Source of the DNA: Acholeplasma sp.
GTDB lineage: Bacteria > Bacillota_I > Bacilli_A > Acholeplasmatales > UBA5453
Assembly (NCBI GenBank): GCA_036677365.1
Contig: JAVBWN010000034.1
Location: 1 to 26,773, forward strand
Length of the DNA: 26,773 nt
Direction of reading: 5' to 3'
The first letter of the stretch is position 1. Every line of letters starts with the position of its first letter. The position numbers were made by a program, and so were the translations under genes. The notes under the pieces were generated by a model. The model was not told the origin of the DNA. It saw only the letters and a program-made list of their open reading frames with translations, and did not search any database. This document shows, in pieces, positions 5,357-26,773 of the stretch.

Positions 5357-5406
5357 AAGGAATACAACACTAAATTAGATAGACTACTGTGTTGGTGTGG
5401 TATAAA

Positions 5407-5964
5407 ATGAAGCGTTTTATTGTATTGATGGGAGTTATCCTTGGTTTTATTATGATCGGTGTATTGGTATGGCAATCCGATAATTCAAAACAAAATACAT
5501 TTTTAAAGAGTCACAATTTAGAAGGGTTATCTATTCAAGAAATCGTGGATTATCTAGAACGAAAAACAGATGAGCCTGCTGGTTTCAAAGCAAGCATCAC
5601 GGGAACTAAGCTTATATTGGGTGACGAATTTTCTTCTTTTGATTTAGCGGTTCCAAAAGGGCTATTTTACTTATCGTTCGCGCCATACGTAGATCAAACC
5701 CACCCATGTGGAAATCACAATCTAGTCACCTGCACAGGCGAACTTAAAAGTACAGTTTTTCAAGTTACCATTACAGATTTAAACACCGGTACAAATATTT
5801 ATGATGGTTCTTTAAGATCCTCAGCCAAAGGTTTCGTCGGTATTTGGCTGCCACGTGGTAAGACACTTAGGATTACAGTCCGTTATGGGGATTTATCCGC
5901 GACTTCTATAGTAACCACGAATTACGACAGTGATACCTGTTTGACCACCTTAAGATTGAACTAA
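5407..5964 (+). CDS. CueP-family extracytoplasmic copper-binding protein
   Basis: N-terminal anchor helix; FYLSFAPYVDQTHPCGNHNLVTCTGEL, GFVGIWLPR and TCLTTLRL match CueP-family His/Cys motifs. The start is placed at ATG 5407 (ORF track 5389). Confidence 0.8.
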   Translation: MKRFIVLMGVILGFIMIGVLVWQSDNSKQNTFLKSHNLEGLSIQEIVDYLERKTDEPAGFKASITGTKLILGDEFSSFDLAVPKGLFYLSFAPYVDQTHPCGNHNLVTCTGELKSTVFQVTITDLNTGTNIYDGSLRSSAKGFVGIWLPRGKTLRITVRYGDLSATSIVTTNYDSDTCLTTLRLN

Positions 5965-6047: not shown

Positions 6048-6875
6048 TCATTTTAGACCCAATCTTTCGATGTCTTTTTCGACACCGATGGTAGCTTTTT
6101 TACGGCCCAATGTTTTCTTTTTATACGTGAATATAAAGGCTGTTAACGCCCCAATTACGAGTAGATAAATCGCCAAAGCCAAAATAACCCAACGGGTTGA
6201 GTCAATCTCAACTCGCGTTGAAATCGATACATTACCAAATGGTTCTTCCGGCAATTCCCCGTTTGTTTCATAAAAATCGATCACTTGATTCATCACGCCA
6301 AATCGTTCATTTGTAAAGTTGACTGGGATGGTGATGTAAGGGTCTTGCATCCCTTCTAAATACATCTCAATATTGGTTATCGGCATAATATTATCACCAG
6401 TTTTAAATTGAGAACGGTCGATAAATTGAACAGCTGTGTCAGGATTCATGGTAGAAAATATCGGGAAATCTAACAATTGAAATCCAAGGTATTCTTGTTG
6501 TTGATTGTTAGATGCTACGACATTGATGGAATAGTATTCACCCCATGAAGGACCTTCTATCTTTTCCATCAAAAAGAATATGCCATCCCTAAAGACGAAT
6601 TCATTCGATGTCACAGAACGGGATACCAATACCACTTCATAGACCATGATGTGTAATGTGTGATCTTCTGCTTCAATGATTTCATCCAGTAATCTGACAT
6701 TGTTGTAATATTTAAATGGTACAAAGAAATCTAAATCTTCATTTTCAAGCGCAATGGTAGCCGCTTTACGGATACCCTCTTTTCTAACTGCAGAATCGGT
6801 GAAATTGTATGTCATAAGCAGCCCTAAAGCAGCAATCATCGCAAACAAAATTCGATTGATGTATTTAATTAGCAT
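6048..6875 (-). CDS. Hypothetical membrane protein (N- and C-terminal TM helices, ~200-aa external domain)
   Basis: Hydrophobic segments near residues 9-25 and ~230-251 and a basic cytoplasmic tail; begins 3 nt after the nuclease stop codon. Confidence 0.7.
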   Translation of the reverse strand: MLIKYINRILFAMIAALGLLMTYNFTDSAVRKEGIRKAATIALENEDLDFFVPFKYYNNVRLLDEIIEAEDHTLHIMVYEVVLVSRSVTSNEFVFRDGIFFLMEKIEGPSWGEYYSINVVASNNQQQEYLGFQLLDFPIFSTMNPDTAVQFIDRSQFKTGDNIMPITNIEMYLEGMQDPYITIPVNFTNERFGVMNQVIDFYETNGELPEEPFGNVSISTRVEIDSTRWVILALAIYLLVIGALTAFIFTYKKKTLGRKKATIGVEKDIERLGLK

Positions 6876-6878
6876 GTC

Positions 6879-8309
6879 TTACCCCCATACGCCTAAGCGG
6901 TTTTGTTTCGCATACGCTTCTGCATTCGCCATCCATACGGCGAGTGGGATGCCATTAAAAATAAGGGATTGCGTATCGTCTGAATAATTGTTTTGGCTGT
7001 AACCATATAAAACGAGTTCGTAATTGAGAAGTTTACCATCGTACCACACCAAACCAAGTTGGCGTTCATAAGAGTCTATTCTACCTGATCTTGGGTCGTG
7101 TTGGATATAGATAACTGAAGCAAATCTGAGTTTGTTATACACATAACTCTTCGCTTGGGTTGCAACCAAACCAGAACCCATTTCAGGAGTATCAATACCA
7201 ATAAAACGGAGGCGTTGTTCCCCTAAGAATCCTGGGATAAAATAGGCTGTATCACCATCGTAATTGCTTTCAAAAGAGACTTGAACCATACCGCCAGGGG
7301 TATTAAATGGGATTTCTGCATAGCTTAAATCCCAAGTAAATGTGGTTGGGTATGCAACAGGGTGAGTACCGAGTGGTTCGATATAGTCTTTCGCATACGT
7401 ATCCCAGTCATTTCTTATGAATGTGGTATTCGGTTGTGTTACTTTTGTGTTTCTGATTAAGGTGATGTTATTAAAGATATCCAGAGCCCAACCCACAATA
7501 CCCAAAGTATCGATGATTTCATTGTTATAAAACATGAGGGTAACGATATCATTACCGTTAAAAACCAGTTTATCGGTGATTAAATTGGCTTTAGCAAGGA
7601 TTTCAGCGTTTGAACCAGTATGACTAATGACGAAGGTGCTCGAAGGGTTTAAAACGCCTTCTAATGTGATGATTTCATTCACTGTTTCTGAACCATCTAA
7701 AAATAATCCAATTCGATACTTAGAAAGATCCACAGGTTCATTAGAAATGTTATAGAGTTCAATTGCTCTGTTGGTGGTTGCACCTTCGATGTATTTGGAA
7801 ATGATTAAATCCCTTTCCACCACAACAAAGTTTTTCGCAACAAATATCACCACTGTTGTATTATCCGGTAGAATTTGTCCTACAAATCTTGGCTCTAAAT
7901 ATTTAACGAATTGACCCTCAGGGACACTGTTGGTTTCGTATTCACGATACTCGATATAAAGTTTCATGTTGGTGAAGTATCCAGCGATATCATCTTTATG
8001 CACACCAGCAAGATTTGGTAAAACATTGGCGTGAATAGCGAATGTGATGATCACACTGGTGCCTTTTTCCACTTCATCACCAATTTCAAAGTCGCCTTTA
8101 TATTCGATGAAGCGATTTCTGGTTTTGGTATTGTCGATGACATCTTCAAATGTGTACTCAATATCCAGTGGTTCTAATAGATCAATGACCTGTTCTTTAT
8201 TGAGTCCTGTGAGATCTGGTAGAATCACTTTTGTAGATTCGGTTGGGGTACATCCAATGATGATTAAAGATAAGAAAAGGATGGATAGGATTGATATGAT
8301 TTTCTTCAT
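6879..8309 (-). CDS. Lipoprotein nuclease: 2x PASTA-like + lamin-tail domain (LTD) + thermonuclease (SNase)
   Basis: Lipobox IIGC; LPDLTG and LPNLAG repeats; LTD LIISKYIEG..NRAIELYN..VDLSKY..FNGND; SNase YDGDTA, RFIGIDTPE, DSYERQLG, LLNYELV and AKQNRLGVW. Confidence 0.85.
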   Translation of the reverse strand: MKKIISILSILFLSLIIIGCTPTESTKVILPDLTGLNKEQVIDLLEPLDIEYTFEDVIDNTKTRNRFIEYKGDFEIGDEVEKGTSVIITFAIHANVLPNLAGVHKDDIAGYFTNMKLYIEYREYETNSVPEGQFVKYLEPRFVGQILPDNTTVVIFVAKNFVVVERDLIISKYIEGATTNRAIELYNISNEPVDLSKYRIGLFLDGSETVNEIITLEGVLNPSSTFVISHTGSNAEILAKANLITDKLVFNGNDIVTLMFYNNEIIDTLGIVGWALDIFNNITLIRNTKVTQPNTTFIRNDWDTYAKDYIEPLGTHPVAYPTTFTWDLSYAEIPFNTPGGMVQVSFESNYDGDTAYFIPGFLGEQRLRFIGIDTPEMGSGLVATQAKSYVYNKLRFASVIYIQHDPRSGRIDSYERQLGLVWYDGKLLNYELVLYGYSQNNYSDDTQSLIFNGIPLAVWMANAEAYAKQNRLGVWG

Positions 8310-8338
8310 AGAGATTTCTCCTCTTTTTTAGCATAATC

Positions 8339-8366
8339 ATTATATCATAGAATGGATTTTTATCTA
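8339..8366 (-). promoter_or_regulatory. Internal promoter for the LTD-SNase gene pair
   Basis: Perfect extended -10 TGaTATAAT (8347-8339) and TAGATA 16 nt upstream; RBS GAGGAG before ATG 8309. Confidence 0.6.
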
Positions 8367-8385
8367 CTTGTGTGTGAATAATACG

Positions 8386-8418
8386 AAAAAAGGACGAGCC
8401 GTGAGGTTCGTCCTTCTT
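8386..8418 (-). terminator. Intrinsic terminator after the 1200-aa gene
   Basis: Minus strand AAGGACGAACC-TCAC-GGCTCGTCCTT-TTTT. Confidence 0.8.
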
Positions 8419-8434
8419 GTATAGATTGATAAGA

Positions 8435-11400
8435 TTACTTCCAAGTCAACATTCTCACATCATAGACGTTCGATGCGAGAACTTCCCACTCTGTCCATTC
8501 TGTTGTTAAGACTGGATTTAAAACAGTAGATTTACGAACAAGTGTATGATCTTTTGTATAATCGGTTTCCCATTGTGCTGAAGTACCTGATGGTACTGCA
8601 GTTGTCCAAACACCGAGAACATCCACAAATGTCCAAACACTATCTACATTCTTAGCAATAGCAATAATGTCACCTTGTGTTCCATTAAATGCGTAACTAA
8701 ATGCGATTGCTCTATTTCCGTTGCCGATAGCTGCAATATCTGTTGCAAAGTTAGCAATATACGCAGAGTTAGAAGCATTAATCATATCTCCATGATAAAT
8801 TACTAAAACTTTACCGTGTTCTAGAACACCAGTTAATGCCGGACCAGCAATGTTTGCTGCAACTGGAGCTGCAGTTAAGTTGTTTAATGACCCTATCTTG
8901 TATTGAGTTAAGTCGACGGTTGCGCCTGTGTTGTTGTAAACTGCGATAACTTTTCTGTTACCAACGCTACCTTCCATATAATAAGAGATGAAAAGGTCTG
9001 ATGAATAAACAACAGGTTGTGTGTCTGTGCCTAAAGTGACTTCAAATGTTTGAACTTTAGTTGCTGCGTTAAGGGATAATGTTGCAGTTAATGTAACGAC
9101 AACTTGTCCACTTTGTGGCATCACGACTGCGCCAGTTGCTGGGTCGATTAATGCATTGTTTGAAGATGTCCAAACAATTGCAGAACCGTTAGAACCAGTT
9201 GTAGGTAATGTGATGGTTGTAGGTGCAGTGTGTGCTGCTGCAACAACTAATGCTGCTGCATCTGCGTCTACTAAATCTTGGTCAGATAATCCAACAACGA
9301 TGTTGAATTCTCTTGTTTCAGTAACTGAACCTAAAGTAATGGTTGCGGTTAATTTAACTGTAACTTGACCAGAAACTGGTAATGTAACGACACCTGCTGC
9401 TGTGATGACTGCTGCATTGTCGGTTGCCCAAGTAATTGCTGCGCCGTTAGCACCTGTTGCAGGTAATGTTAATGTTTGGTTAGATTTAACTTCAGCTGGT
9501 AATGTTAAGGCTACTTTATCACCAGCAACCTTAGTTGCATCTGTTAGAGCGACTTCAGTCACGATAGATGAATCTGTGAAATATAGGTAAGGGTTATTTA
9601 ACCAAGCCAATACATTAGTAACAGAAACTTCTTTACCAACAGTTAAGGTACCCAATAAGGTAGCTGCTGCAGAAGATAATACAACGCGAGAGTCCCACTT
9701 CATAAGAATGGTTCTACCTGTTGCAACTTGAGTTAATGTTAATGTAACGTTATTGAATGAATCAGATGCGCGGTTTGTAACCTTTAATTGAGTTAATGTG
9801 ACTAGTCTGCCTTGATAAGGTAACATATCTGTTGCATTTAATGCGACAGCGTCAACATTCACTGCAGTAACAGTACCTGTTGTACCTAATGCTTTGATAT
9901 CGGACGGTGCCATTTGTCTTAAGCCATTGAATGCACCTCTAGTACCGATGACTTCAACATCTTTACCTACGTTTGCTTTTAATAATGCCAACATGGTAGC
10001 GTTTGATGTATAGATTGCGATACCAGCTTCACCTTGTTGGATGAAGTATGTTCTGTAGTATTCAGATGCTGTAACCGTACCTTGAACACGGTAAACTGTA
10101 GAGTTTACTGGAGCATCCACCACTTGTTGAACGGTGGATAGAGGGATTTGTCCGACTTTAACAACGAATGTTTGAACGCCGGAAGCAGCACCCTTAGTAA
10201 TGGTTGCTGTTAATGTAACGGCTGTTTGTGATCCAGCCACTGGTGTTACAACACCTGTAGTAGGGTTGATTAAGTCATTATTTGAGGAGGTCCAAACGAT
10301 GGTTGTACCGAGTAGATCTGTAGGTAATGTCAATGTAGCGGCAGTTTCTTGAATTGCAGGTAGACCCGCGATTGCTTGAATCTTAGCTGCGTCAACAGAT
10401 TCTTGATCGGTCATAGGTAAGACTTCGATATCTGCAGCAACACCGGTGAAGATGAATGTGAAGATGGTTCTGTCTGTTCTATATGAATATAGGAAAACAT
10501 TAAGTTTAACCTTGAGACCGTCAAATTCACGTAATGCTGCCATGTTTGATTTGTAATAAATCATTAATGCATTCGGTGTGAATGGTGAGTTTGCAGACGA
10601 ATTGATATCCGGACCAGCAAAATCAAAGTCAACTAGGAATGTATTATAGTTAGCATCACTTGTAGGTTGTACTCTTACTTTACCTTCAATTTGTAGGTAT
10701 GCATAAGGGAATGGTGCTGTTTGTGTAAATGTTTGTGGTAAGGTTGCGATGTATTGAGTGATTGTACCTGGTAATGCAGCTGGTTCTAGTACTTTCGCAG
10801 GTTCTGTAGAAGCCTTAAGGATGGTAGGCATTTCAGCACTCTTAGTACCATTGAATTGCCATGAACCAAAGTAGTAATCTACGAAACCGGTGATATCATA
10901 AACGTCACCAACTTTAATTGATGCTGCTGGTGTACCGCTTGTGAATACGAATAATAAGCTTGCGCCATCATAAATCATGTAACCATCGCCAGAGATACCA
11001 ACGACTGTTACGGCTTCAATCTTAGCGTATGTGTCAGGTGCTGGTGATAATTGTCTATTTGCGACAGATAGAGCGATTGCGGCTTGGATGGATGCTACTT
11101 CTGTGTATGGTGCGAACGATAATACGACAACATCAAATGTCTTAGTATCTGAAGAGGTACCTTTGGTTAAGGTAGCTGTTAAGGTAACAGTGACATTTTC
11201 AGATTGACGGTTAACTTTACCATCGTTGCCAATGACATCTGGATTGCTTGAAGACCAAGTAACGGTGACACCGTCAGAACCTACAGTGGTAGGTAATACT
11301 AAGTCAGCAGCAACACCATTGCCGATACCAGCAAGGAGTAATGCGTCTTTCGCTTCTGCGACTGCAACGCTGTTAGGTTTAACATTGATTGCAGGGACAG

Positions 11401-12037
11401 TGATGATGAATTCTCTGGTTGCATCACCAACGGAAGCAACTAGAATGACTGTTTGGTCGGATTGACCCCACGCTGGACGTACAACTTTACCAGCAGTATT
11501 GATGACTGCAGTGTTTGGTGACGACCAAGTGATGTCTAACTTCATTGATCTTGTAGGTAAGAACAAATCAGTTGTGGTGGTATATCTGCCAGTAGATTCA
11601 TTGTAAACCAATGTGCTACTGAAAATTTGAAGTGCTGCAAGCGCTTCTTCAGGTGTTGCGGCTGCTTCTGCAGCTTTAACTGTGAGTGAGAACACTTTTG
11701 TATCACTGACTTCACGTAATGTTAACGTTGCTGTGAGCGTTACGACTGTGTCTGCGTTTGGTCTAGTAACCACGCCGGCATTGGAAATGACAGCTGTATT
11801 GCTAGATACCCAAGTAATGGTAATTTCACCAAGTGCGCTTGGTAATGTTACATTTCTTGTTACGCTGGATGCGGAATCGCCTTGTCCATAGACTAAAGCC
11901 ACTTGATCTAATGCTGCTTCAACAGCCTCTTTGTCTGGGTTTGCAGGTGTTTCACATGCAACCAAGCCAAGAATTGCTACTAGCGTTAGAACTAGTGCGA
12001 CGATACCTTTTGTGAAACTGAATCTTTTGGTACTCAT
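8435..12037 (-). CDS. 1200-aa surface lipoprotein: six bacterial Ig-like repeats, ~four OB-fold-like domains, C-terminal lamin-tail domain; no recognisable catalytic domain
   Basis: Lipobox LVAC; six repeats of LP..(I/V)xWxSxN..VI...G.V..P...VTLTAT....F; OB-like segments (GYMIYDG..VGDVYDITG..YFGSWQ; YFIQQGEAGIAIY..VGKDVEVIG..FNGLRQ; YQGRLVTL); LTD DLFISYYMEG..NRKVIAVYNNTGATVDL..DHTLVRK. Confidence 0.8.
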   Translation of the reverse strand: MSTKRFSFTKGIVALVLTLVAILGLVACETPANPDKEAVEAALDQVALVYGQGDSASSVTRNVTLPSALGEITITWVSSNTAVISNAGVVTRPNADTVVTLTATLTLREVSDTKVFSLTVKAAEAAATPEEALAALQIFSSTLVYNESTGRYTTTTDLFLPTRSMKLDITWSSPNTAVINTAGKVVRPAWGQSDQTVILVASVGDATREFIITVPAINVKPNSVAVAEAKDALLLAGIGNGVAADLVLPTTVGSDGVTVTWSSSNPDVIGNDGKVNRQSENVTVTLTATLTKGTSSDTKTFDVVVLSFAPYTEVASIQAAIALSVANRQLSPAPDTYAKIEAVTVVGISGDGYMIYDGASLLFVFTSGTPAASIKVGDVYDITGFVDYYFGSWQFNGTKSAEMPTILKASTEPAKVLEPAALPGTITQYIATLPQTFTQTAPFPYAYLQIEGKVRVQPTSDANYNTFLVDFDFAGPDINSSANSPFTPNALMIYYKSNMAALREFDGLKVKLNVFLYSYRTDRTIFTFIFTGVAADIEVLPMTDQESVDAAKIQAIAGLPAIQETAATLTLPTDLLGTTIVWTSSNNDLINPTTGVVTPVAGSQTAVTLTATITKGAASGVQTFVVKVGQIPLSTVQQVVDAPVNSTVYRVQGTVTASEYYRTYFIQQGEAGIAIYTSNATMLALLKANVGKDVEVIGTRGAFNGLRQMAPSDIKALGTTGTVTAVNVDAVALNATDMLPYQGRLVTLTQLKVTNRASDSFNNVTLTLTQVATGRTILMKWDSRVVLSSAAATLLGTLTVGKEVSVTNVLAWLNNPYLYFTDSSIVTEVALTDATKVAGDKVALTLPAEVKSNQTLTLPATGANGAAITWATDNAAVITAAGVVTLPVSGQVTVKLTATITLGSVTETREFNIVVGLSDQDLVDADAAALVVAAAHTAPTTITLPTTGSNGSAIVWTSSNNALIDPATGAVVMPQSGQVVVTLTATLSLNAATKVQTFEVTLGTDTQPVVYSSDLFISYYMEGSVGNRKVIAVYNNTGATVDLTQYKIGSLNNLTAAPVAANIAGPALTGVLEHGKVLVIYHGDMINASNSAYIANFATDIAAIGNGNRAIAFSYAFNGTQGDIIAIAKNVDSVWTFVDVLGVWTTAVPSGTSAQWETDYTKDHTLVRKSTVLNPVLTTEWTEWEVLASNVYDVRMLTWK

Positions 12038-12059
12038 TTTCGACTTTCTTCCTCCATTT

Positions 12060-13736
12060 TTAATTATTAAATTCTATACTGCCCATCCCTGGTAACATCA
12101 ATTGATAACCGGAGTTAAATTGTGTGACTGGGGCTGTAACCGAGAATTGTGCGCCTACACTAAATGTGTAGCTTGGAACGACTTTCGCCGTATAATCATC
12201 GACGCGAATATTGATGGTGTTGTTGTTTGAATCTCTTGCTACCACAGTGTATGCGTCGGTGGTTAAACCGGATTGAGACAATTGAATCTGTGTCACGGTC
12301 AAACCATCGATTCTAATCACTCTTCCTACATATTGGGAGACCTGATTGGCTGCGATGGTATTGATCACTACTGGGTTACCTGTCGATAACAAAATCATGT
12401 TGTCAATCGAATAGTTAGATAACTGTTTTGATTGGAAATAAACGGCAGGTACTAAACCTTGAATAGTTACTTCATATCCAATTTGTAATTCATTGGTCAT
12501 GACATAACCTGCATACATGTAAATACCGCGATTGTCATCTTCGATATATACACTGTTACCTACTTTCGAAGTGATGACCCCCGAAATCGTAACTTTCTTA
12601 CCTACATAATCATTAAAATTATCCAGTAAAGTCCCGATATCGATTGGTGTACCACTCGTCGAGTAGTCAAAATCTGGGTCAACTTCGCCATAGATGCGTC
12701 TGCCTGTAAGTTGGGTTTCTGCTTGTGCGGTGATAAATACGGTTCCGTATTGAGTCGATGCAACAGCACTGGTCCAAGCGTAGGCTTCTTCGACTAGTTC
12801 GAGGTTGAGTAATCTTGTCTTACCATCTTTGATGTACCAAACCCAAGCTAAATAACGACCGTTACCATCGGTTCTTGTGCCTTCGGCTTGAAGAATGATG
12901 GTTTCTGCGTTGTCGAGTTTTTCTCTAACAAAGTTGGCAGCTTTGATGCCCCATGGTTCATATTTAGATGTCGCTTCAGGTGCATCAATACCTAAGTATC
13001 GAACAGTGAATCTTTCACCTGTTACGGAATCTCTGAAATTGGTGGTGTCTGCGTCCGTATGGGTCGTGATGGTAACCACGCCAATACCATCATTGATGAA
13101 CGATTTTCCAATGTAGGATACAGCGAGCTGTAATCCATCGGTATGGTTCGTATCGAATGGTGGGACAACGACATTGATTTTGCGAATAACTGTGGTAGAT
13201 AATCCACTATTCATCGCTTGGTAAGTCACATAATAAACACCTATTTGATAGAAGTTTACTTCAGATAGTGTGTTATTATTACTATCCTTGATTTCTAATA
13301 CATAGAAGAAATTGCCAAACGGTATATTATTACCTTTAAAGTCTGTGGCCGTTACACCTTCATAAATATCGAATGTTGGTGGGTTCCCTTGTACTGAGAC
13401 ATAAACCGAAGCCTCATCTGCACCGTTGATGACTGGTGCAGATGGGACTGGAATTGCGATTTCAATACGAATGGTGATGGTTTTGTCGACTTTATCGGCT
13501 ACATTATATCCGACGTATCTAATAAAGGTTCCCGCTGCAATGGTGCTACTTTGAACCTCTCTAAATTGTACTGTAATGCCAACTTCTTCAAATATTGCTT
13601 CAATTTCAGCTTGTGTCTTGCCCGACAACTCAGGGAGTGTGTATCTTGTATCTTCAATAACTGGTGGGTTTTCAACACAACCAGTCAATGTGAATACGAA
13701 TACGGCAAGTAGCAATAAGAAGAATGCCTTTTTCAA
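12060..13736 (-). CDS. Lipoprotein nuclease: PASTA-like + Ig-like + thermonuclease (SNase) + 2x OB-fold
   Basis: TTG start 1 nt after the upstream TAA; lipobox LTGC; LPELSG PASTA-like; APVING..GVTATD Ig-like; SNase TDADT, RYLGIDAPE, DGNGRYLAW and LLNLELV; OB-like YVGKKVTISGVIT..VYIEDDNRGIY and YVGRVIRIDG..TQFNSGYQL. Confidence 0.85.
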   Translation of the reverse strand: MKKAFFLLLLAVFVFTLTGCVENPPVIEDTRYTLPELSGKTQAEIEAIFEEVGITVQFREVQSSTIAAGTFIRYVGYNVADKVDKTITIRIEIAIPVPSAPVINGADEASVYVSVQGNPPTFDIYEGVTATDFKGNNIPFGNFFYVLEIKDSNNNTLSEVNFYQIGVYYVTYQAMNSGLSTTVIRKINVVVPPFDTNHTDGLQLAVSYIGKSFINDGIGVVTITTHTDADTTNFRDSVTGERFTVRYLGIDAPEATSKYEPWGIKAANFVREKLDNAETIILQAEGTRTDGNGRYLAWVWYIKDGKTRLLNLELVEEAYAWTSAVASTQYGTVFITAQAETQLTGRRIYGEVDPDFDYSTSGTPIDIGTLLDNFNDYVGKKVTISGVITSKVGNSVYIEDDNRGIYMYAGYVMTNELQIGYEVTIQGLVPAVYFQSKQLSNYSIDNMILLSTGNPVVINTIAANQVSQYVGRVIRIDGLTVTQIQLSQSGLTTDAYTVVARDSNNNTINIRVDDYTAKVVPSYTFSVGAQFSVTAPVTQFNSGYQLMLPGMGSIEFNN

Positions 13737-13737
13737 A

Positions 13738-15672
13738 TTAAGATCCGCCTAGGTTTGCCTCAGTGAAGGCATCTTGTAATGCAGCGGCGATGTTTCCGTC
13801 CCCAAGCATGATTCTTTCAAGTGCAAGACCTACTTGTGTTCTCGCTCTAGAAGAACCGATGAATGCTGGGTCATAGTACATGTTATTTCTTTGTAGATAT
13901 GCCGCATTCGCTGCCATAGAAATATATAATTGGTTGGCAGTTGGGTTGGTTAAGAAGTTTTGATATGTTGTGGATTCATAAGCACTGGTTCTAACAGGTA
14001 GATAACCGGTTTGCATAGCCCAGTCAGTGGTGTTTTCTAAGCTAATTAAGTGCTTTAAGAATAACCATGAAGCGAGTTGTTGTTGTGCAGTACCTGTCTT
14101 CATCAAGGAAATATTTGTACCTTGTTGGATGACTGCTTTCGCATTAGGCTTCGCTGCATTGTAAGGCACTGGTGCTACACCAATTTGGAACACTGGTTGA
14201 CCTGTTGTTGGGTCTGAAGAAGGTACGTTGTAACGAACACCTGCAGATGAACCAATAGTAACGAATGTTTGTTGGTTAACGAATGGGGTAGATGCATATT
14301 GTTGATCCCAGAATTCTGGTAATGTGATGACTGACTTGTTGTCTTTCAAGAATTGCATCGCTGCGGTTGTGTTCGCATTATTAACCCATAGGTATTCACC
14401 TTTAAATGTTTGGTAGTTAAGTGCGGTATATCCACCTTCAAATTGTCTGGTGAATGTGATGAACGCGTTACCTGTTGAGTCATAAGACGCAGGCACGATC
14501 AAGGCTTTAGCAGCGGCGATGAGCGGTGCCAATGCCATTTCAGTCATACCTGGGTTAGCCGCTCTGACCTTGGCTTCTGCAATCGCATCCCCATAAGTTT
14601 TCAATGCCGGTGCAGCAGCAATGATGTCTTGCCAGGTTTGTGGCACTGGTAATGACAATGCATCAAACGCTGTCTTGTTATAAATCATCACTTCAGTGGA
14701 TTTGTTGAATGGTAATGAATAATATGTTCCTGCTGCGTCATATTGGCTGTTTTCATCTAAGTAGGATTGGATGATATCCGTTAATGCATCTGGACCATTG
14801 AGACCCCATGTGGTGGAGTTGATGTATGGATTTAAGTTTAATACCGCTTTACCATTGAGGTATTCAGCGACATGGTCTGGATATGCTTGTACTAAGTTAG
14901 GCATAGCATTCGCTGTAATCGCGTTGATCATGTTGGTCTTTAAAGTATCATAGTTACCAACACCTGCAGGGATGACTACAGTGACATTTGGATATTTTTG
15001 TTTGAAGGATGCTGCATACTTTTCAAGCAATGCTTGGTTGGATGCACCCATCGCATGCCATAACGTAATTTCGATTGGGTCGGTTGTTAATTGGAACGGA
15101 ATATCGGAAACAGCAACCGTTACGGTGATGGTAGCAGATGCTCTCACGCCTGCTTGATTCGTAACTCTTACAGTTAACGTATATTGTCCTGGGGTATCCA
15201 ATAACAATGTGCCTGTGACTTGAATCGATGTTGTGATGTTGCCATCTACTGGGTCGATTGCAGTAACACCAGCGATTGGGTTGAAGTCACCAGAACCGAT
15301 GTAATAGGTTTGTTGAGCTTTAATCCCATTGAGTACTGGTGGCAACGCTGCAGTCGTACCTTCAACGGTTAAATTGATGGTAACGATGGTTTCATTGCCA
15401 GCAGAGTCGGTAACTTTTAAGGTAATGACATATGTACCAGCGAAATTTAAATCGTCTTGGTCAAAACCACTTACCACAATTTTATCTGTTAAATTGCCAT
15501 CTTCGCGGTCGTTAGCTGTAACACCGTCTAGAGGGTTGTACGAGCCACCTTGTTGCACGACTGGGTTGAGTTGTGCACCAGAGATGGTTGGCGCTTGGTC
15601 TCTTTGCTTAGCACATGCGGTTAACATGACAATCGCAAACAGAACGATTAAAAGCGAAGTAATTCTCTTCAT
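13738..15672 (-). CDS. ABC transporter substrate-binding lipoprotein (CUT1/UgpB-like) with two N-terminal Ig-like (DUF5011-like) domains
   Basis: Lipobox LTAC; two repeats APTISG..PLDGVTAND.EDG.LT..G.Y..T..VTD and PPVLNG..PIAGVTAID.VDG.IT..G.Y.LT..VTN; SBP motifs EITLWHAM, YSLPFNKSTEVMIYNK and TGYLPV; RBS AGGAGG. Confidence 0.88.
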   Translation of the reverse strand: MKRITSLLIVLFAIVMLTACAKQRDQAPTISGAQLNPVVQQGGSYNPLDGVTANDREDGNLTDKIVVSGFDQDDLNFAGTYVITLKVTDSAGNETIVTINLTVEGTTAALPPVLNGIKAQQTYYIGSGDFNPIAGVTAIDPVDGNITTSIQVTGTLLLDTPGQYTLTVRVTNQAGVRASATITVTVAVSDIPFQLTTDPIEITLWHAMGASNQALLEKYAASFKQKYPNVTVVIPAGVGNYDTLKTNMINAITANAMPNLVQAYPDHVAEYLNGKAVLNLNPYINSTTWGLNGPDALTDIIQSYLDENSQYDAAGTYYSLPFNKSTEVMIYNKTAFDALSLPVPQTWQDIIAAAPALKTYGDAIAEAKVRAANPGMTEMALAPLIAAAKALIVPASYDSTGNAFITFTRQFEGGYTALNYQTFKGEYLWVNNANTTAAMQFLKDNKSVITLPEFWDQQYASTPFVNQQTFVTIGSSAGVRYNVPSSDPTTGQPVFQIGVAPVPYNAAKPNAKAVIQQGTNISLMKTGTAQQQLASWLFLKHLISLENTTDWAMQTGYLPVRTSAYESTTYQNFLTNPTANQLYISMAANAAYLQRNNMYYDPAFIGSSRARTQVGLALERIMLGDGNIAAALQDAFTEANLGGS

Positions 15673-15737
15673 TTGTGTCCTCCTAATGAATTTTATGATT
15701 AGCAGCCTGGGGCTGTAAATCCCAAATCGGGTAAATC

Positions 15738-17225
15738 TTATCCTTTGGTTCCACTTCTACCCACACCACGGATGATGTATTTCTTGAGTGAGAAGAAAAT
15801 GATGAGTAGTGGTACGGTAACTAAAGCAGTCGCTGCCAACTGAATGTTGTAAACCGGTCTAGCGTCTGAGCCTGAACCGACAACGAAGCTGGTGCTACGT
15901 AAAGCGACGGAAATCAACCAGTTCTTTTGACTTGGTGCAACCAATTGTGGCCAAATGTAGGCGTCCCACGCACCGATGGCTGATAAAATCGTAATCGTTG
16001 TGATGGTTGGTCTTGCGATTGGAATCATGACTCTTGTCAAATATTTGAAATCGCCACAACCATCGACTTGAGCGGCTCTGTAAAGCGAATCTGGGATTTG
16101 CTTAAAGGATTGTCTCAAGAAGAAAATGTAGAATACAGAGGTCATGAATGGAAAGATCAGTGCTGCGAATGAGTCATACCATCCAAGGTTTCTAACGGTA
16201 ATGTAGTTGGTAATGGTGTAAAGTTCACCTGGAATCATCATGGTCATGAGCAGGATAGAGAAGATGAATTCTCTACCTTTGAAGTCTAATCGCGAGAACG
16301 CAAAGGCTGCCAAGATGGTGGTGGTAACTGTACCAACCATCGATATTAAACCAACGGTTACAGTATTACCAAGATAACGCCAGAAACTGAATCTTGTGAA
16401 TGCGACTTTGAAGTTGACCCATTGCATTTCATCCAAGCCAATGAAGAATCTTGGGTTGAGACGTGTGGTGAGTTCAACGTGCGTCTTTAAAGCGGTGAGG
16501 ATCATCCAGTAGAATGGGATGAAAATGAATATCGCGATGAAGGTTAGGAAGGTGTACATAGCTACCAATCCAAAGGTCTTCATGATCAAGTCATTACGAC
16601 CGACACGTTCTAGGTCCTGTTGTGATAACGACCCCTTGCGTTCGATTTCAGCGTCTATTTTCATTTGACGCGCTTTTTCTTTACCAAACTTTTGAATGTT
16701 GTTCTTATATTCTGCGCGGCGTGCGAAGAAAGCTTTTGTGCTGTTAACCAAACTCACAAAGAATTTGCCAATGGCTTTAAAGCCTTCGATGAACCCTTTG
16801 CCTAAGTTGTAGTTTTGGATGATGAGCATCATCTTGTTTGCTGTGATGAAACGGATGATGGCTGATGCTGGGTTACCTGTGAAAAATGCCATGAATGCAT
16901 ATAACACTTGTGAACGATAGTCCCATGGATCCAACTCAATGGTTTCTTTATCTGCAACACGCTTGATGTGTTTTACAGCGGTAGGTACGAATACGAGTAG
17001 GTAACCTACCAATAAGGAAATCATCACGTTCATTTGTGCTGAAGTCACCTTAATGAATCCAAAGAAAATGTATTCTGCGCTGACAACATCAGTAATGACC
17101 GCCGGTTCAACGAGAATGTAGAAGAAGTACCCGAGTACAACCATGTAAATCAATGCATATGCAATATCAATCAGTGTAGCGATCAGGTCTAGACGCTTAA
17201 TTTCTTTAGTAATTCTTTTCATCAT
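15738..17225 (-). CDS. ABC transporter permease (MalG/UgpE-like) with ~210-aa N-terminal extension
   Basis: PFYWM..ALK, AAFAFSRLDFKGRE, EAA-like IPDSLYRAAQVDG and WDAYIWP in the C-terminal ~280 aa; extra TM helices and a charged linker at the N-terminus. Confidence 0.88.
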   Translation of the reverse strand: MMKRITKEIKRLDLIATLIDIAYALIYMVVLGYFFYILVEPAVITDVVSAEYIFFGFIKVTSAQMNVMISLLVGYLLVFVPTAVKHIKRVADKETIELDPWDYRSQVLYAFMAFFTGNPASAIIRFITANKMMLIIQNYNLGKGFIEGFKAIGKFFVSLVNSTKAFFARRAEYKNNIQKFGKEKARQMKIDAEIERKGSLSQQDLERVGRNDLIMKTFGLVAMYTFLTFIAIFIFIPFYWMILTALKTHVELTTRLNPRFFIGLDEMQWVNFKVAFTRFSFWRYLGNTVTVGLISMVGTVTTTILAAFAFSRLDFKGREFIFSILLMTMMIPGELYTITNYITVRNLGWYDSFAALIFPFMTSVFYIFFLRQSFKQIPDSLYRAAQVDGCGDFKYLTRVMIPIARPTITTITILSAIGAWDAYIWPQLVAPSQKNWLISVALRSTSFVVGSGSDARPVYNIQLAATALVTVPLLIIFFSLKKYIIRGVGRSGTKG

Positions 17226-17233
17226 TAAGCCTC

Positions 17234-18283
17234 CTAGTAATGGACTCGACGTTTACCAACTTGAAGTTGGAGTACCGTGAATACCAAGATGATACCAAAT
17301 AGAATAATTGCAGCGGCAGATGCGTAGGACATGAGTCCATCTTGTGACGCCAAGCCGATGTAATCGTAAATATAGAATACGATGGTCTTTAAGTTGATAG
17401 TTCCGTTCGCACCAGTGGTGATTAAACCTTCACGGTTGATGATCGCGACGACGCTAGAATACGTTTTAAACGCACCAATAACTGATGTGATTAGGATATA
17501 GAATATCATCGGTGAAATCATCGGAACTGTGATGCGATAGAAGGATTTACTTCTCGATGCACCATCGATTTGAGCGGCTTGATAGTATTGCTTGTCAATG
17601 CCTTGGATACCCGCTAGGAAGACGATGATCTTAAATGCCAAACCGTTCCAAACGGAATAGATTAAGATGACGCTCATCGCAGACCAATAGGTTGCACCAA
17701 CACCAATCCAAACAATTGGCTTTAATCCAATCCACGTGAGTAGTTGGTTGGCTAAACCAAGGTTGGTTAAGTCGTTGACGTTCCCTTTGAACATGAAGGC
17801 GAATACTAACCCGATCGCAATCGAGTTGGTAACATAAGGTAAGAAGAAAATCGATTGATAGAATCCTCTTAATGGCTTGATGGCATTGAGTGCGACTGCA
17901 ATCATCAATCCGACGAAAATCGTGACTGGGACGGAAATCAATACAATCATGCTGGTATTAAAAATCGCTCTACCGAAGTTGGCATGGCTCAATACCGTTT
18001 GGTAGTTACCAAATAAAGTATACCCATCAAAGTCTCCTCTTTGGATGTTATATCCGGTATAGAAGGAAATCAAAAATGAGTTGAAAATCGGGTAAAACGT
18101 AAAAATCATTAGCAATGAAAGTGCTGGGATTAAGTAGAAAATCGCTTTTAACCAAGCTGGCCATCTCACAATGAATTGCAATCCTAACTTCGATAGGAAG
18201 TTGTCGATTACAACACCGGTATGGTGCAATTTGCTTCTAAAGACCCAGATCATTTGTTTTAATCTTGAGTCTTGCTTATTCAT
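17234..18283 (-). CDS. ABC transporter permease (MalF/UgpA-like)
   Basis: YLIPAL..FTFYP, FFLPYVT and EAA-like LAGIQGIDKQYYQAAQIDGAS; 4-bp overlap with the ATPase gene. Confidence 0.92.
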   Translation of the reverse strand: MNKQDSRLKQMIWVFRSKLHHTGVVIDNFLSKLGLQFIVRWPAWLKAIFYLIPALSLLMIFTFYPIFNSFLISFYTGYNIQRGDFDGYTLFGNYQTVLSHANFGRAIFNTSMIVLISVPVTIFVGLMIAVALNAIKPLRGFYQSIFFLPYVTNSIAIGLVFAFMFKGNVNDLTNLGLANQLLTWIGLKPIVWIGVGATYWSAMSVILIYSVWNGLAFKIIVFLAGIQGIDKQYYQAAQIDGASRSKSFYRITVPMISPMIFYILITSVIGAFKTYSSVVAIINREGLITTGANGTINLKTIVFYIYDYIGLASQDGLMSYASAAAIILFGIILVFTVLQLQVGKRRVHY

Positions 18284-19332
18284 AGAACCACACTACCACT
18301 TTCTAAATCGAATAGGTGTACTTTACCAGGTTTAACCATAAGATTGATGGTTTCTGAAGTGGTCACCGTATCGGATTCTAATAAAGCTCTCATAGCGACG
18401 CCACCTAAATTGAACTTAATCATGGTATCTCTACCGATGCGTTCGATATGGTCTGTAGACACGACAAATCCACTTGGGTCGACCTTGAAATCTTCAGGAC
18501 GAATGCCAATTGCATAAATGCCATCTTTCGCTTTGGTCTTACCAACCACAATGTCTTCACCGACGATGATGTGTCCAGATTCAACACGACCTTCGAATGT
18601 GTTGATTGGTGGGTTACCTAAGAATTTCGCAACGAATAAGTTGTCTGGATGATTGTACATATCTTGTGGCGCATCCATTTGTTGCATGACGCCATAGTTT
18701 AAGACAACCATTTGGTCTGAGATGGACATCGCTTCTTCTTGGTCATGGGTGACGAAGACGGTGGTGATGCCGGTTTCTCTTTGAATACGCTTGATTTCTT
18801 CTCTGGTTTGAAGACGTAATCTCGCGTCAAGGTTGGATAGTGGTTCGTCAAGTAACAATACTCTAGGTTTCTTGACCAAGGCTCTCGCAATCGCGACTCT
18901 TTGTTGTTGACCCCCAGATAATTGAGAAGGCTTTTTGTCTAATTGGTCTTTAATACCAACCAAATCCGCCATTTCTTCTACCAATACTTGCGCTTGTTTA
19001 AAACTCACGTTCAAGTTTTCAAGCGGGAACATGATGTTTTGTCTTACAGTCATATGCGGGTAAAGTGCATAGTTTTGGAAGACCAATCCGATCCCTCTTT
19101 TTTCTGGTGCGAGTCTTGTAACATCGTCATCACCAAAGAAAATCTTACCACCCGATGGCTTGTGTAACCCCGCGATCATAAATAATGTCGTGGATTTACC
19201 ACAGCCCGATGGACCTAACAACCCAACCAGTTTTCCTGATGGGATTGTAATGGTTAATTCGTCTACTGCTCTGGTTTCTTTACCGGTTTTGTCGGTAAAT
19301 ACCTTCGTTAAACCTTCTAATCTAATCTCCAT
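18280..19332 (-). CDS. ABC transporter ATP-binding protein (MalK/MsmK/UgpC-like, TOBE C-terminus)
   Basis: Walker A GPSGCGKST, Q-loop VFQNYALYPHM, signature LSGGQQQR, Walker B LLLDEPLSNLD, H-loop VTHDQEEA and GIRPED. Confidence 0.95.
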   Translation of the reverse strand: MEIRLEGLTKVFTDKTGKETRAVDELTITIPSGKLVGLLGPSGCGKSTTLFMIAGLHKPSGGKIFFGDDDVTRLAPEKRGIGLVFQNYALYPHMTVRQNIMFPLENLNVSFKQAQVLVEEMADLVGIKDQLDKKPSQLSGGQQQRVAIARALVKKPRVLLLDEPLSNLDARLRLQTREEIKRIQRETGITTVFVTHDQEEAMSISDQMVVLNYGVMQQMDAPQDMYNHPDNLFVAKFLGNPPINTFEGRVESGHIIVGEDIVVGKTKAKDGIYAIGIRPEDFKVDPSGFVVSTDHIERIGRDTMIKFNLGGVAMRALLESDTVTTSETINLMVKPGKVHLFDLESGSVVL

Positions 19333-19374
19333 ATTTTTCCTAACTCCTTATATCGATTGTTATGGTCGTCTTTT

Positions 19375-19416
19375 TCTAAAAATAAAAGCACTCGATGGTT
19401 TACCCAAAAAGTACTC
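19375..19416 (-). terminator. Possible attenuator/terminator-like hairpin in the operon leader
   Basis: Minus strand GAGTACTT-TTTGG-GTAAA-CCATC-GAGTGCTT-TTATTTTT; an imperfect G-U-rich stem followed by a U-rich run, starting within the uORF stop codon. Confidence 0.35.
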
Positions 19417-19489
19417 AATTTAAAATATGATAAAAAAATAGCGCAGTGATGTTATCTGTTGTATTAGTCGTCGTTGTCAATACTTGCAT
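19415..19489 (-). CDS. Putative 24-aa leader peptide MQVLTTTTNTTDNITALFFYHILN
   Basis: ATG at 19489 with a strong RBS GAGGTGA (19502-19496) 6 nt upstream, TGA at 19417-19415, and position just downstream of a promoter. It is too short for the ORF track. Confidence 0.5.
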   Translation of the reverse strand: MQVLTTTTNTTDNITALFFYHILN

Positions 19490-19512
19490 CTCTACTCACC
19501 TCGCCACTATGT

Positions 19513-19541
19513 ATTATATTATAATAATACACTCTTTTCAA
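19513..19541 (-). promoter_or_regulatory. Proximal sigma70 promoter (P2) of the ABC/nuclease operon
   Basis: TTGAAA (19541-19536)-N17-TATAAT (19518-19513). Confidence 0.65.
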
Positions 19542-19594
19542 TCCGTCGTCAAAAAACATTGATTTTATTTACAAAGATTTTGCACTACTGAATC

Positions 19595-19606
19595 GAAAGC
19601 GCTTTC
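19595..19606. promoter_or_regulatory. LacI-family/cre-like operator palindrome
   Basis: Perfect palindrome GAAAGCGCTTTC with central CG, the core of cre-type TGAAAGCGCTTTCA sites; it lies just downstream of the P1 -10. Confidence 0.6.
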
Positions 19607-19618
19607 TAGCGTGTTTAT

Positions 19619-19647
19619 ATTTTAATATAACAGAAATCAATTGTCAA
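19619..19647 (-). promoter_or_regulatory. Distal sigma70 promoter (P1) of the ABC/nuclease operon
   Basis: TTGACA (19647-19642)-N17-TAAAAT (19624-19619). Confidence 0.7.
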
Positions 19648-26054: not shown

Positions 26055-26195
26055 CATATGAAAAGAACAAAGAGGTGAATAAATCACCCTTTAAAGAATG
26101 ATTTATGATACATACCTCTTAACGATTTAACTCGTCTTATTTAAAGCGACTACACACCAAATAGGTATGTACGCTTAGGCGTGTTCACGCCCTTA
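26055..26195 (-). ncRNA. Predicted TnpB omegaRNA (reRNA): scaffold to TCAC at 26075 plus ~20-nt flank-derived guide
   Basis: Three consecutive hairpins on the minus strand (GGCGTG/CACGCC 26191-26178; TACATACCT...AGGTATGTA 26171-26109; ATAAATCATTCT-TTAA-AGGGTGATTTAT 26106-26079), immediately followed by TCAC. The 5' boundary is uncertain. Confidence 0.55.
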
Positions 26196-26773
26196 TCCCC
26201 TATCCATAAGGCATCGGGATTACCTTTTCGAATCATATTTAGTGAGGCATTTTGATCGGCATTGATCAAGATGCCTTTTTGACTCTTATATAAACCCCTT
26301 TTGATTCTAGCTCCAGAGAAATCTCCTTTTACATAATCATCTTGGTCTAGATAAGACGCTTTAGAGGTGTAAGCTTCATTGATCACTTTGGTTTCGATTC
26401 CTAATTGTTCTGCTAGATAGATAATTCGATCTCTTAGTCTAGCTATAGGTATACTTTTAGTCCACTGATTATACGTATCCGATAGTTTTTCATCTTTAAA
26501 GGTGTCATTATAACCTAGGATGATTTGTTTTACCTTATTCTTAACTGCGTGACTCATAATGAGTTTAGCTGCTTTATACATCCCATAATCCATTTGATGG
26601 TTTCTCTTGTCCATCAATCGTATCATTTGTTTGGTTAAGACATTTTGACTAGGTCTAATACTCGCTAGTTTCGCGATTCGTTTATGATAAAACTGATTCA
26701 TACTCTTTAATCTCTTACCATCAATCAATAAGTGCTCATTGTTCGTAGTTGAACAAAACGCTAAGTTGTTATA
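26075..26773 (-). mobile_element. IS200/IS605-superfamily tnpB element, right portion (left part outside window)
   Basis: tnpB CDS plus terminal hairpin ending in TCAC, the TCAN right-end pattern. Confidence 0.72.
26150..26773 (-). CDS. tnpB: RNA-guided endonuclease TnpB, 5'-truncated by window edge
   Basis: The frame is open to the window end (YNNLAFCSTTNNEHLLIDGKRLKSMNQFY...); motifs INEAYTSKAS, FSGARIKRGLY and INADQNASLNMIRK (RuvC-III Asp). Confidence 0.92.
   Translation of the reverse strand, partial: YNNLAFCSTTNNEHLLIDGKRLKSMNQFYHKRIAKLASIRPSQNVLTKQMIRLMDKRNHQMDYGMYKAAKLIMSHAVKNKVKQIILGYNDTFKDEKLSDTYNQWTKSIPIARLRDRIIYLAEQLGIETKVINEAYTSKASYLDQDDYVKGDFSGARIKRGLYKSQKGILINADQNASLNMIRKGNPDALWIGDKGVNTPKRTYLFGV

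Follow-up and report, generated by a model that had tools for sequence, protein, structure and literature searches.

The window analyzed here, that is, the whole 26,773-nt stretch of DNA, is one entire contig (C34, JAVBWN010000034.1) of an Acholeplasma sp. assembly (GCA_036677365.1; 1.97 Mb, 37 contigs, 99.86% complete), and it carries a block of eight genes that we read as an operon for feeding on extracellular nucleic acid. According to this reading, to which we give a probability of roughly 60%, nucleic acid would be captured and cut at the cell surface, phosphorylated mono-, di- and short oligonucleotides would be imported by an ATP-binding cassette (ABC) transporter, and NrnA-type enzymes would finish the breakdown. 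The host, an Izemoplasmatales-like bacterium, appears unable to make nucleotides de novo.

The original prediction, made from the DNA letters, of a nucleic acid utilization locus with divided labor held up: the block encodes two SNase lipoproteins with intact predicted active sites, a giant lipoprotein with OB folds and a lamin-tail domain (LTD), and a CUT1-type importer whose genes lie beside the SNase genes. To judge from their folds, the OB and lamin-tail domains of the giant lipoprotein, raised above the membrane on aBig_2 modules, would catch DNA or RNA. The two membrane-tethered nucleases, one with an OB module and one with a lamin-tail domain, would cut it to 3'-phosphorylated mono-, di- and short oligonucleotides. 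The Ig-stalked binding protein, given its pocket residues, would then bind a small product that contains a phosphodiester or a phosphate (a dinucleotide or similar molecule being the likeliest) and hand it to the two permeases and the ATPase. Inside the cell, NrnA-type DHH phosphoesterases, whose genes are linked to the block in relatives, would cut the imported pieces to mononucleotides. That the parts form a physical multiprotein machine, as had also been proposed, is unproven.

The eight-gene block and its proteins

The features of the block are as follows.
18280 to 19332, minus strand: ABC importer ATPase of the CUT1/MalK-UgpC type, 350 aa (Pfam ABC_tran; NCBIfam best model UgpC)
17234 to 18283, minus strand: permease 1, UgpA/MalF-like, 349 aa (BPD_transp_1; NCBIfam UgpA)
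15738 to 17225, minus strand: permease 2, UgpE/MalG-like, 495 aa (BPD_transp_1; NCBIfam UgpE)
13738 to 15672, minus strand: substrate-binding lipoprotein, 644 aa (Pfam SBP_bac_8 and Bact_surface_Ig-like; AlphaFold model; Foldseek)
12060 to 13736, minus strand: nuclease lipoprotein 1, 558 aa (Pfam SNase; hhalign for the C-terminal OB module)
8435 to 12037, minus strand: giant lipoprotein, 1200 aa (Pfam aBig_2 and LTD; AlphaFold and Foldseek for the OB folds)
6879 to 8309, minus strand: nuclease lipoprotein 2, 476 aa (Pfam PASTA, LTD and SNase)
6048 to 6875, minus strand: membrane protein, 275 aa (two hydrophobic helices; outside all Pfam and NCBIfam families)
19513 to 19647, minus strand: two promoter-like sites upstream of the ATPase gene (consensus scan)

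The eight open reading frames (ORFs) are co-oriented and tightly packed over positions 6048 to 19332, with spacings from the ATPase gene to the membrane-protein gene of -4, 8, 65, 1, 22, 125 and 3 nt as calculated from the coordinates. Lipoboxes (LTAC, LTGC, LVAC and IIGC) were read from the translations of four of the proteins. The ORFs and the Pfam and NCBIfam matches confirmed the original prediction of eight co-oriented, mostly tightly coupled genes with these transporter and lipoprotein types.

Nuclease 1 contains an SNase domain (45.8 bits against a cut-off of 21, E 9.5e-12, Pfam; 12717 to 13007) in which D230, R246, D251, E254 and R294 align to the catalytic set D21, R35, D40, E43 and R87 of staphylococcal nuclease. 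In nuclease 2, PASTA (32.8 bits), LTD (45.8 bits; 7497 to 7814) and SNase (32.4 bits, cut-off 21; 6885 to 7214) all exceeded their Pfam cut-offs, and the N-terminal part of the NCBIfam ExeM model matched residues 162 to 318 (1.2e-29, 103 bits against a cut-off of 1300). Residues D353, R368, D373, T374, E376 and R416 of nuclease 2 align to the SNase catalytic set. The DGDT motif, R368, T374, E376 and R416 were invariant across 17 homologues, D373 being the sole listed residue of the set that was not. Both SNase domains keep the Ca2+-ligand and catalytic residues, and their active-site sets are predicted to be intact. The chemistry of staphylococcal nuclease yields 3'-phosphorylated products. 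In a profile search of the whole genome, the only two SNase and the only two LTD matches all fell inside the block; four Endonuclease_1 genes lie elsewhere, and Endonuclease_NS had no match in the genome.

The C-terminal, OB-containing module of nuclease 1 (residues 381 to 557; 12066 to 12596) aligned to residues 648 to 826 of the giant protein (hhalign, 98.6%, E 8e-16). This homology to the OB region of the giant protein means that the order of SNase domain followed by OB module holds by homology. Pfam gave nothing usable for residues 345 to 558 at E≤5, and a profile of the C terminus found nothing in the PDB below E 0.049. At the N terminus, a PASTA-like stretch (17.7 bits, cut-off 23.2) and an Ig-like stretch (19.5 bits, cut-off 27) were both sub-threshold. 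Thus, of the predicted PASTA-Ig-SNase-OB-OB architecture of this protein, the SNase domain stood, the OB part was recovered through profile homology rather than Pfam, and the PASTA and Ig parts were seen only below threshold, whereas the PASTA, LTD and SNase parts predicted for nuclease 2 were all recovered. PASTA modules are usually tied to peptidoglycan sensing; they are membrane-proximal in nuclease 2 (and sub-threshold in nuclease 1), and the named relatives of the lineage are described as wall-less.

The giant lipoprotein is the proposed nucleic acid catcher, a role suggested largely by its structural model. Pfam found six aBig_2 stretches (3.4e-97) and a lamin-tail domain (36.6 bits against a cut-off of 34.3; 8726 to 9004) and no nuclease domain in it. 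The OB-fold region spans residues 315 to 845 (9503 to 11095). An OB fold was invisible to Pfam in both the giant protein (residues 315 to 565 and 630 to 845 scanned) and nuclease 1, even at E≤5, and a sequence search of the giant protein against the PDB returned only the aBig_2-like domain of the arabinanase AbnA. The OB part of the predicted Ig/OB/LTD architecture was recovered only through structure prediction, the aBig_2 and LTD parts coming from Pfam. The AlphaFold model of this region, built with an alignment of 22 homologues, had a mean predicted local distance difference test score (pLDDT) of 91.2, and its Foldseek matches were tandem-OB nucleic acid binders at E 2e-7 to 1e-3: the p204 HINab-dsDNA complex (E 2e-7), CST, Teb1 AB, the Oxytricha telomere protein, RPA70, Deinococcus SSB and POT1. 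VIA-align placed a canonical OB fold at model residues 316 to 412 (Z 11 to 12, root mean square deviation of ~2 to 2.5 A over 85 to 93 residues), with the N domains of aspartyl-, asparaginyl- and lysyl-tRNA synthetases, Stn1/Ten1, RPA and HIN as partners, and an aBig_2 domain at model residues 226 to 316 (Z 12.8, 34% identity to AbnA); the comparison list barely probed the other beta-rich parts of the model. The giant protein of a relative matched the Pfam tRNA_anti-codon OB family at 6.4e-14.

The 275-aa membrane protein is a conserved companion of nuclease 2. Hydrophobic helices at its N and C termini, read from the alignment, flank an outside loop of ~200 aa and are followed by a basic tail. 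It matched no Pfam or NCBIfam family, its loop gave nothing usable in Pfam at E≤5, and the ESM Atlas offered just "hypothetical" clusters (best score 0.85, no stored model). An iterative search of the first 31 loci yielded 18 homologous ORFs, two of which are duplicates of one record. Their genes always adjoin the nuclease 2 gene, on its downstream side except in locus L017, where the gene lies upstream. The family is very divergent, with no invariant column, and its topology is kept. A complex prediction with nuclease 2 (residues 21 to 476) and the loop (residues 28 to 240) scored 0.00, which speaks neither for nor against binding.

Among the importer parts, the ATPase matched ABC_tran at 7.9e-37 (Pfam), and its best NCBIfam model, UgpC, reached 342.5 bits, under the cut-off of 432. 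Permease 1 matched BPD_transp_1 at 5e-15, with UgpA as the best NCBIfam model. In permease 2, BPD_transp_1 covered residues 304 to 488 and UgpE residues 269 to 489, in a core of about residues 220 to 495 that is preceded by an N-terminal extension of ~215 aa. Residues 1 to 215 gave nothing usable in Pfam at E≤5. This extension, made up of several hydrophobic stretches and a charged helix, is present in most of the order-level loci described below and absent from more distant ones, where matches begin near residue 181 and the ORFs are ~290 to 345 aa long. The ATPase gene also varies, bearing an insert or extension of ~200 to 390 aa in several relatives when compared with the 350 aa of the window; its matches are split by an insert between residues ~107 and 118 in L015, L017 and L030, and its ORFs are 571 to 739 aa long in L057, L064, L068 and L069.

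Recurrence of the block and the pocket of its binding protein

The eight-gene order recurs in the nearest named records, a "Bacillota bacterium" metagenome-assembled genome (91% identity) and an "uncultured Candidatus Izemoplasmatales bacterium" (62%). For the order-level set, the surroundings of the top match to the binding protein were taken from 28 related genomes of five families, giving 29 regions; with locus L002 added, the set comprises 30 loci. A scan with hidden Markov models (HMMs) found an SNase ORF in 25 of the 30 loci, a homologue of the giant protein in 29 and one or the other in all 30, counts that partly match by construction, as the HMMs were derived from these loci; tblastn with the window's own proteins agreed with them. 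Of the five loci without a counted SNase, three (L007, L012 and L026) stop at a contig end beside the block, and in two (L024 and L025) part of the nuclease 2 gene shows at the margin of the cut stretch. A Na/Pi-PhoU gene is present in L002.

At the level of the class, the binding-domain profile matched 91 of 201 sampled genomes from 14 of 28 families at E≤1e-45. One region with 9-kb flanks was taken from each of 40 genomes in ten other families (best E≤2e-75; the matches of family f18, at E ~1e-53 and mostly half-length, were left out) and was scanned with HMMs built from the order-level proteins. An SNase ORF was present in 39 of these 40 loci (L074 being the exception) and lay within 300 bp of the binding-protein gene in 37. 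A giant-protein homologue was found in 29 and an LTD in 12. NrnA-like genes accompany the block in 12 of the 30 order-level and 15 of the 40 class-level loci (there within the 9-kb flanks), 11 of the latter with a tandem arrangement. Recurrence of the block in 30 order-level and 40 class-level loci excludes chance, and the linkage between ABC and nuclease genes, on whose conservation in relatives the original prediction had staked itself, is found in both sets. In one class-level locus, L055 (G158:C50), the summed transporter scores were 2171 with TGA read as Trp and 1791 otherwise; this genome may use code 4, or the locus may contain errors.

The binding protein consists of a lipobox, two Ig-like stalk domains (about residues 21 to 194; 15091 to 15612) and a binding domain (residues 195 to 644; 13741 to 15090) that belongs to the UgpB/dinucleotide-binder clade. 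Pfam identified SBP_bac_8 (2.5e-26) and two Bact_surface_Ig-like stretches. In a PDB profile search with the binding domain, E. coli UgpB, a marine UgpB and the Thermus protein of the 7c0* entries ranked first. The AlphaFold model (pLDDT 94.9) had as its top Foldseek match the 7c0* dinucleotide-binding protein (E 1e-24, TM 0.84, 22% identity), followed by the E. coli, M. tuberculosis and marine UgpB proteins. The PDB titles describe the 7c0* protein as [quoted passage not shown] (UpG).

In the proteins that bind glycerol-3-phosphate (G3P)/G1P, glycerophosphocholine or U3G, and not in glucose binders, phosphate is held by two tyrosines and two serines, and a glycerol clamp of two tryptophans is found only in UgpB (PMC12718374). 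Mapping through HMMER alignments, with the numbering offsets checked on Glu88, Ser143 and Tyr342 of 9LFF and on Y56, F79, N81 and S127 of 7C0F, placed Y241, Y264, D266, S325, Y459, S475, Y481, Q517, G518, Y557 and R611 in the pocket. The phosphate tetrad corresponds to Y241, S325, S475 and Y557, and it was invariant in 27/27 order-level and 49/49 class-level homologues. The Gly and Arg that hold the glycerol hydroxyls in UgpB are G518 and R611. The position of UgpB Glu88 is an invariant Pro in the window protein and its homologues, no conserved Trp occurs in domain residues 160 to 235 of the homologues, and the UgpB clamp segment does not align there. According to the PDB titles, the depositors of 7C0F mutated eight residues (Y56F, F79A, N81A, S127A, Y224A, T240A, Y246A and Q274A). 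These positions correspond to Y241, Y264, D266, S325, Y459, S475, Y481 and Q517, five of them identical and three conservative, and all are invariant or nearly so in the homologues except Y481. In place of Y224, Y246 and Q274, the E. coli UgpB sequence shows Ser, a gap and Gly, respectively.

The binding protein stands apart from ordinary sugar binders. Its pocket pattern, as read from aligned residues, argues for a phosphate-bearing, dinucleotide-shaped ligand larger than G3P and stops short of proof; it cannot tell 3'-mononucleotides, dinucleotides and somewhat longer fragments apart. The prediction that the importer takes phosphorylated products rather than sugars gains indirect and rather specific support from the nearest structures and the phosphate tetrad. 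In 8 of the 40 class-level loci (L062, L064, L065, L066, L068, L069, L071 and L072), two or three tandem binding-protein paralogues precede the nuclease gene; the pocket residues are conserved in all of them, and the copies might differ in the ligand length or the base that they prefer.

It is very improbable that the importer carries a sugar, such as (deoxy)ribose or an oligosaccharide, and that the nucleases are functionally separate neighbors. SBP_bac_8 proteins and CUT1-type permeases do belong mostly to sugar systems, and many sugar binders matched the binding-protein model in Foldseek at E 1e-21 to 1e-19. However, as originally predicted, no glycoside hydrolase family was among the Pfam matches of the 23 ORFs scanned (the eight block genes and 15 flanking ORFs), and these scans also found no sugar-catabolic gene in or beside the block. 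Glucose binders lack the phosphate tetrad (PMC12718374), and the nuclease linkage is near-universal across the ten further families.

A true Ugp-type system for G3P or glycerophosphodiesters, lying near nucleases only through a common part in phosphorus scavenging, is improbable, if less so than a sugar importer. The best NCBIfam models of the four transporter parts are UgpC, UgpA, UgpE and UgpB, UgpB tops the PDB profile search, and the tetrad is joined by G518 and R611. Set against these points, all scores fall far under the equivalog cut-offs (85.9 against 411 bits for UgpB), Glu88 has become an invariant Pro, the clamp segment has no conserved Trp, and E. coli UgpB lacks three residues that the window protein has in common with the dinucleotide binder. 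In addition, a GlpQ-type phosphodiesterase did not turn up in scans of the window or of 53 accessory ORFs, and the close spacing of SNase and binding-protein genes in 37 of the 40 distant loci also argues against a Ugp system.

Wasmund et al. read comparable importers as carriers of nucleosides or nucleobases, the nuclease products being fully dephosphorylated outside and only the uncharged parts imported; we regard this as unlikely here. In the cited passages, the transporters are termed "probable nucleoside or nucleobase transporters" and membranes are said not to pass nucleotides (PMC8289736). The genome also encodes a 669-aa surface lipoprotein (contig C14:54497-56506, equal to L075:1998-4007, minus strand) with aBig_2, Flg_new (Listeria-Bacteroides repeat), Metallophos and 5_nucleotid_C domains, which fits that route. 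This nucleotidase-type lipoprotein has its aBig_2 stalk module in common with the giant protein. The nucleoside reading nevertheless rests on neighborhood, which fits nucleotides equally. A nucleoside binder would not need the phosphate tetrad that all 27 and all 49 homologues keep, and many related loci have beside them genes for NrnA, which acts on short oligonucleotides and pAp and is described, in the source passages, as an oligoribonuclease and pAp phosphatase (PMC6609329). Furthermore, a complete Bmp/PnrA nucleoside ABC importer is encoded elsewhere in the genome, so that the nucleoside route already has its own transporter. The nucleoside route and one for phosphorylated products may well run in parallel. 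With purF under its cut-off and pyrB not found in a genome of this completeness, the organism probably depends on imported nucleotide units.

Several points weigh against import of phosphorylated fragments, in addition to the partly built-in order-level counts given above and the limits of the RNA-library contigs given below. The sugar binders in Foldseek lie only 3 to 5 orders of magnitude behind the top match, so that the fold alone does not discriminate the ligand. Y481 varies, being kept in 21/27 order-level and 35/49 class-level homologues. The roles of the eight mutated 7C0F residues are inferred from PDB titles, the ligand of the Thermus binder co-purified from the expression host, and the paper on that protein (Chandravanshi and colleagues, FEBS J, 2021) reportedly links dinucleotide binding to a "moonlighting" function in its title. 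UpG has one internal phosphate and no terminal one, while SNase products carry a 3'-phosphate, and the tetrad suits glycerophosphodiesters equally well. The Bmp/PnrA importer and the 5'-nucleotidase-family surface lipoprotein would together suffice for a nucleoside route. Finally, the tandem NrnA pair of this genome lies on contig C36 and not in the block, and in several relatives NrnA stands within a block of PP-loop, MgtC and MnmE genes, so that part of its linkage may be inherited gene order. On C36, from 7187-9032 onward (L033), PP-loop and MgtC genes come after the tandem NrnA genes. L017, L022 and L030 show this order on the downstream side of their nuclease block; the block seems to have left that neighborhood in this genus.

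Import of phosphorylated fragments by this block is the reading we retain. It is an even bet that the binding protein and its ABC partners represent a wider thing: a widespread, dedicated family of di- or oligonucleotide importers, coupled to SNase lipoproteins outside and NrnA inside, and the genes, so far missing, behind the intact-nucleotide uptake that was reported long ago for mollicutes. For the uptake of intact deoxymononucleotides by M. mycoides, the modellers of the minimal cell state that "no gene has been identified" (PMC6609329). Among the open-access papers listed (12 of 116 matches and 12 of 20), none describes a nuclease-coupled oligonucleotide or dinucleotide ABC importer. DNA uptake by a competence-type system was rejected as well, since ComEC, ComEA and pilus genes are missing from the block and ABC importers that work with a binding protein transport small ligands.

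Transcription and genomic setting

RNA libraries hint that the block is transcribed in nature. Seven RNA-labelled runs hold 53 to 93% of the sampled words of positions 9400 to 19390, and contigs from four such runs, belonging to four studies, cover the block, although such contigs tell nothing about strand, ends or level, and DNA may be present in RNA libraries. In run X5, a single 11,028-nt contig covers 8489 to 19493, with adapter letters at the 8489 end; it begins ~160 nt ahead of the start of the ATPase gene and breaks off 54 nt short of the giant gene's stop. On the ATPase side of the block, the contig ends lie at 19493 (X5) and 19545 (X15). Depth in X5 was 24 over 8489 to 19493 and 0 to 11 over the genes for nuclease 2 and the membrane protein. 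In X15, it was ~20 to 40 over the giant, nuclease 1 and binding-protein genes, 10 to 19 over the permease and ATPase genes, and 2 to 3 over nuclease 2 and the membrane protein. Parts of this last stretch had no contig cover in some RNA runs, and such a hole in cover proves nothing. These depths hint at two units, one running from the ATPase gene to the giant gene and the other comprising nuclease 2 and the membrane protein.

Consensus scans found promoter-like sites in both places. Ahead of the ATPase gene, the terminator-like hairpin of MatE (19718 to 19702) precedes TTGACA-17-TAAAAT at 19647 to 19619 and TTGAAA-17-TATAAT at 19541 to 19513, each agreeing with the consensus at 11 of 12 positions, agreement that is a consensus match only. 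Position 19647, at which the original prediction had bounded the block, falls at the -35 hexamer of the first site. Before the nuclease 2 gene, a promoter-like site with an extended -10 lies at 8366 to 8339. The depth drop at about 8300 to 8500, near this site, may be a transcription-unit boundary.

The flanking genes identified by Pfam are unrelated to the block: MatE and asparaginyl-tRNA synthetase genes lie upstream, and genes for CueP, a SHOCT protein and a two-component system lie downstream. The CueP-family gene (5389 to 5964, plus strand, E 1.8e-41) adjoins the operon on the opposite strand and encodes a protein with an N-terminal hydrophobic helix; CueP proteins are described as binding copper in the periplasm. 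A fragment of an IS605 OrfB/TnpB-like gene (OrfB_IS605, Cas12f1-like TNB; 26150 to 26773, minus strand) runs off the contig end. Rfam at gathering thresholds found no RNA family within the window.

Comparison with known systems

Extracellular DNA is a major pool of phosphorus, nitrogen and carbon in sediments, according to the cited passages (PMC8289736), and Izemoplasmatales-like bacteria are among its specialized consumers. The enzymes that cut the polymer are recognized; the form in which their products cross the membrane is a gap. If the proposal is right, fragments are imported with their phosphate, the cell saves that phosphate and the energy of phosphodiester-linked units, the view that nucleotides are dephosphorylated before uptake fails for a large group, and the reported nucleotide uptake of mollicutes gains a candidate gene set. 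The invariant pocket residues reduce the ligand question to one purified protein. The locus itself is one more example of a described kind, and the identity of the ligand is the part that we did not find in print among the open-access papers listed.

The likeness to a cellulosome that had been suggested survives only as an analogy: cohesin and dockerin were not among the Pfam matches of the eight proteins at E≤0.01. Likewise, no TonB-dependent transporter or SusD was among the Pfam matches, so that the resemblance to a Sus-like polysaccharide utilization locus (PUL) concerns the way of working and not membership. At the level of domains, the window nucleases resemble Bacillus subtilis YhcR, in which OB folds are fused to an SNase domain, and Shewanella ExeM, in which a lamin-tail domain is fused to a nuclease. 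Those proteins carry a sortase signal or are secreted and have a fused 5'-nucleotidase or EEP domain, whereas the window nucleases are lipid-anchored and have neither domain.

The binding protein shares its CUT1 binding-protein clade, the phosphate tetrad and the Gly and Arg with UgpB (E. coli 4AQ4, marine 9LFF, M. tuberculosis 6R1B) and departs from UgpB proper in lacking the conserved clamp Trp, in its Pro at Glu88 and in scoring far under the equivalog cut-off. With the Thermus thermophilus dinucleotide binder (7C0F, 7C0K and 7C0L), it has the FNKS and QGTN motifs in common; the two Ig stalks, the lipid anchor and a helical insert (about domain residues 165 to 200) distinguish it from that protein.

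In Mycoplasma, operons such as MAG_5030-5070 of M. agalactiae, those of Mpn133, Mhp379 and MHO_0730, and the MG186-MG189 type named in the original prediction are similar to the window in that a surface SNase lipoprotein, a binding lipoprotein and a CUT1-type ABC transporter are encoded side by side. [quoted passage not shown] Compared by published description, these operons have one nuclease, unlike the window, and a giant OB/LTD protein is unreported there as far as those descriptions go. The window's binding protein matched the NCBIfam model lipo_P68 (Mycoplasma P80/P68) weakly and in the N-lobe only (E 2.8e-9, 36 bits, cut-off 200).

The closest published counterparts are the "DNA-degradation loci" of Izemoplasmataceae and family UBA5603, for which the cited passages report nucleases, ABC transporters and a large LTD protein and draw the PUL comparison (Wasmund et al. 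2021, PMC8289736). Xianfuyuplasma coldseepsis zrk13 (PMC8397711) and Hujiaoplasma nucleasis zrk29 (PMC10470597) are described as degrading DNA or RNA and inducing such loci. The original prediction was therefore right that multi-nuclease loci had been reported in Izemoplasmatales and overrated the novelty of this one, since both the loci and the PUL comparison date from 2021 and induction is on record for two cultured relatives. We compared these loci by their published description. Like them, the window has two SNase lipoprotein genes in one block, an ABC transporter and binding protein co-oriented with and nearly abutting the nuclease genes, and a large protein (~1000 aa there, 1200 aa here) with nucleic acid-binding and lamin-tail domains. 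Unlike them, the block contains no 3'-5' nuclease/NrnA phosphohydrolase genes and no phosphate transporter in Pfam scans, and its giant protein shows no nuclease domain, while such a domain is attributed to the published 1,049-aa protein. Unlike the nucleoside or nucleobase importers proposed in those papers, moreover, the window's binding protein has a pocket that appears to point to a phosphate-bearing ligand.

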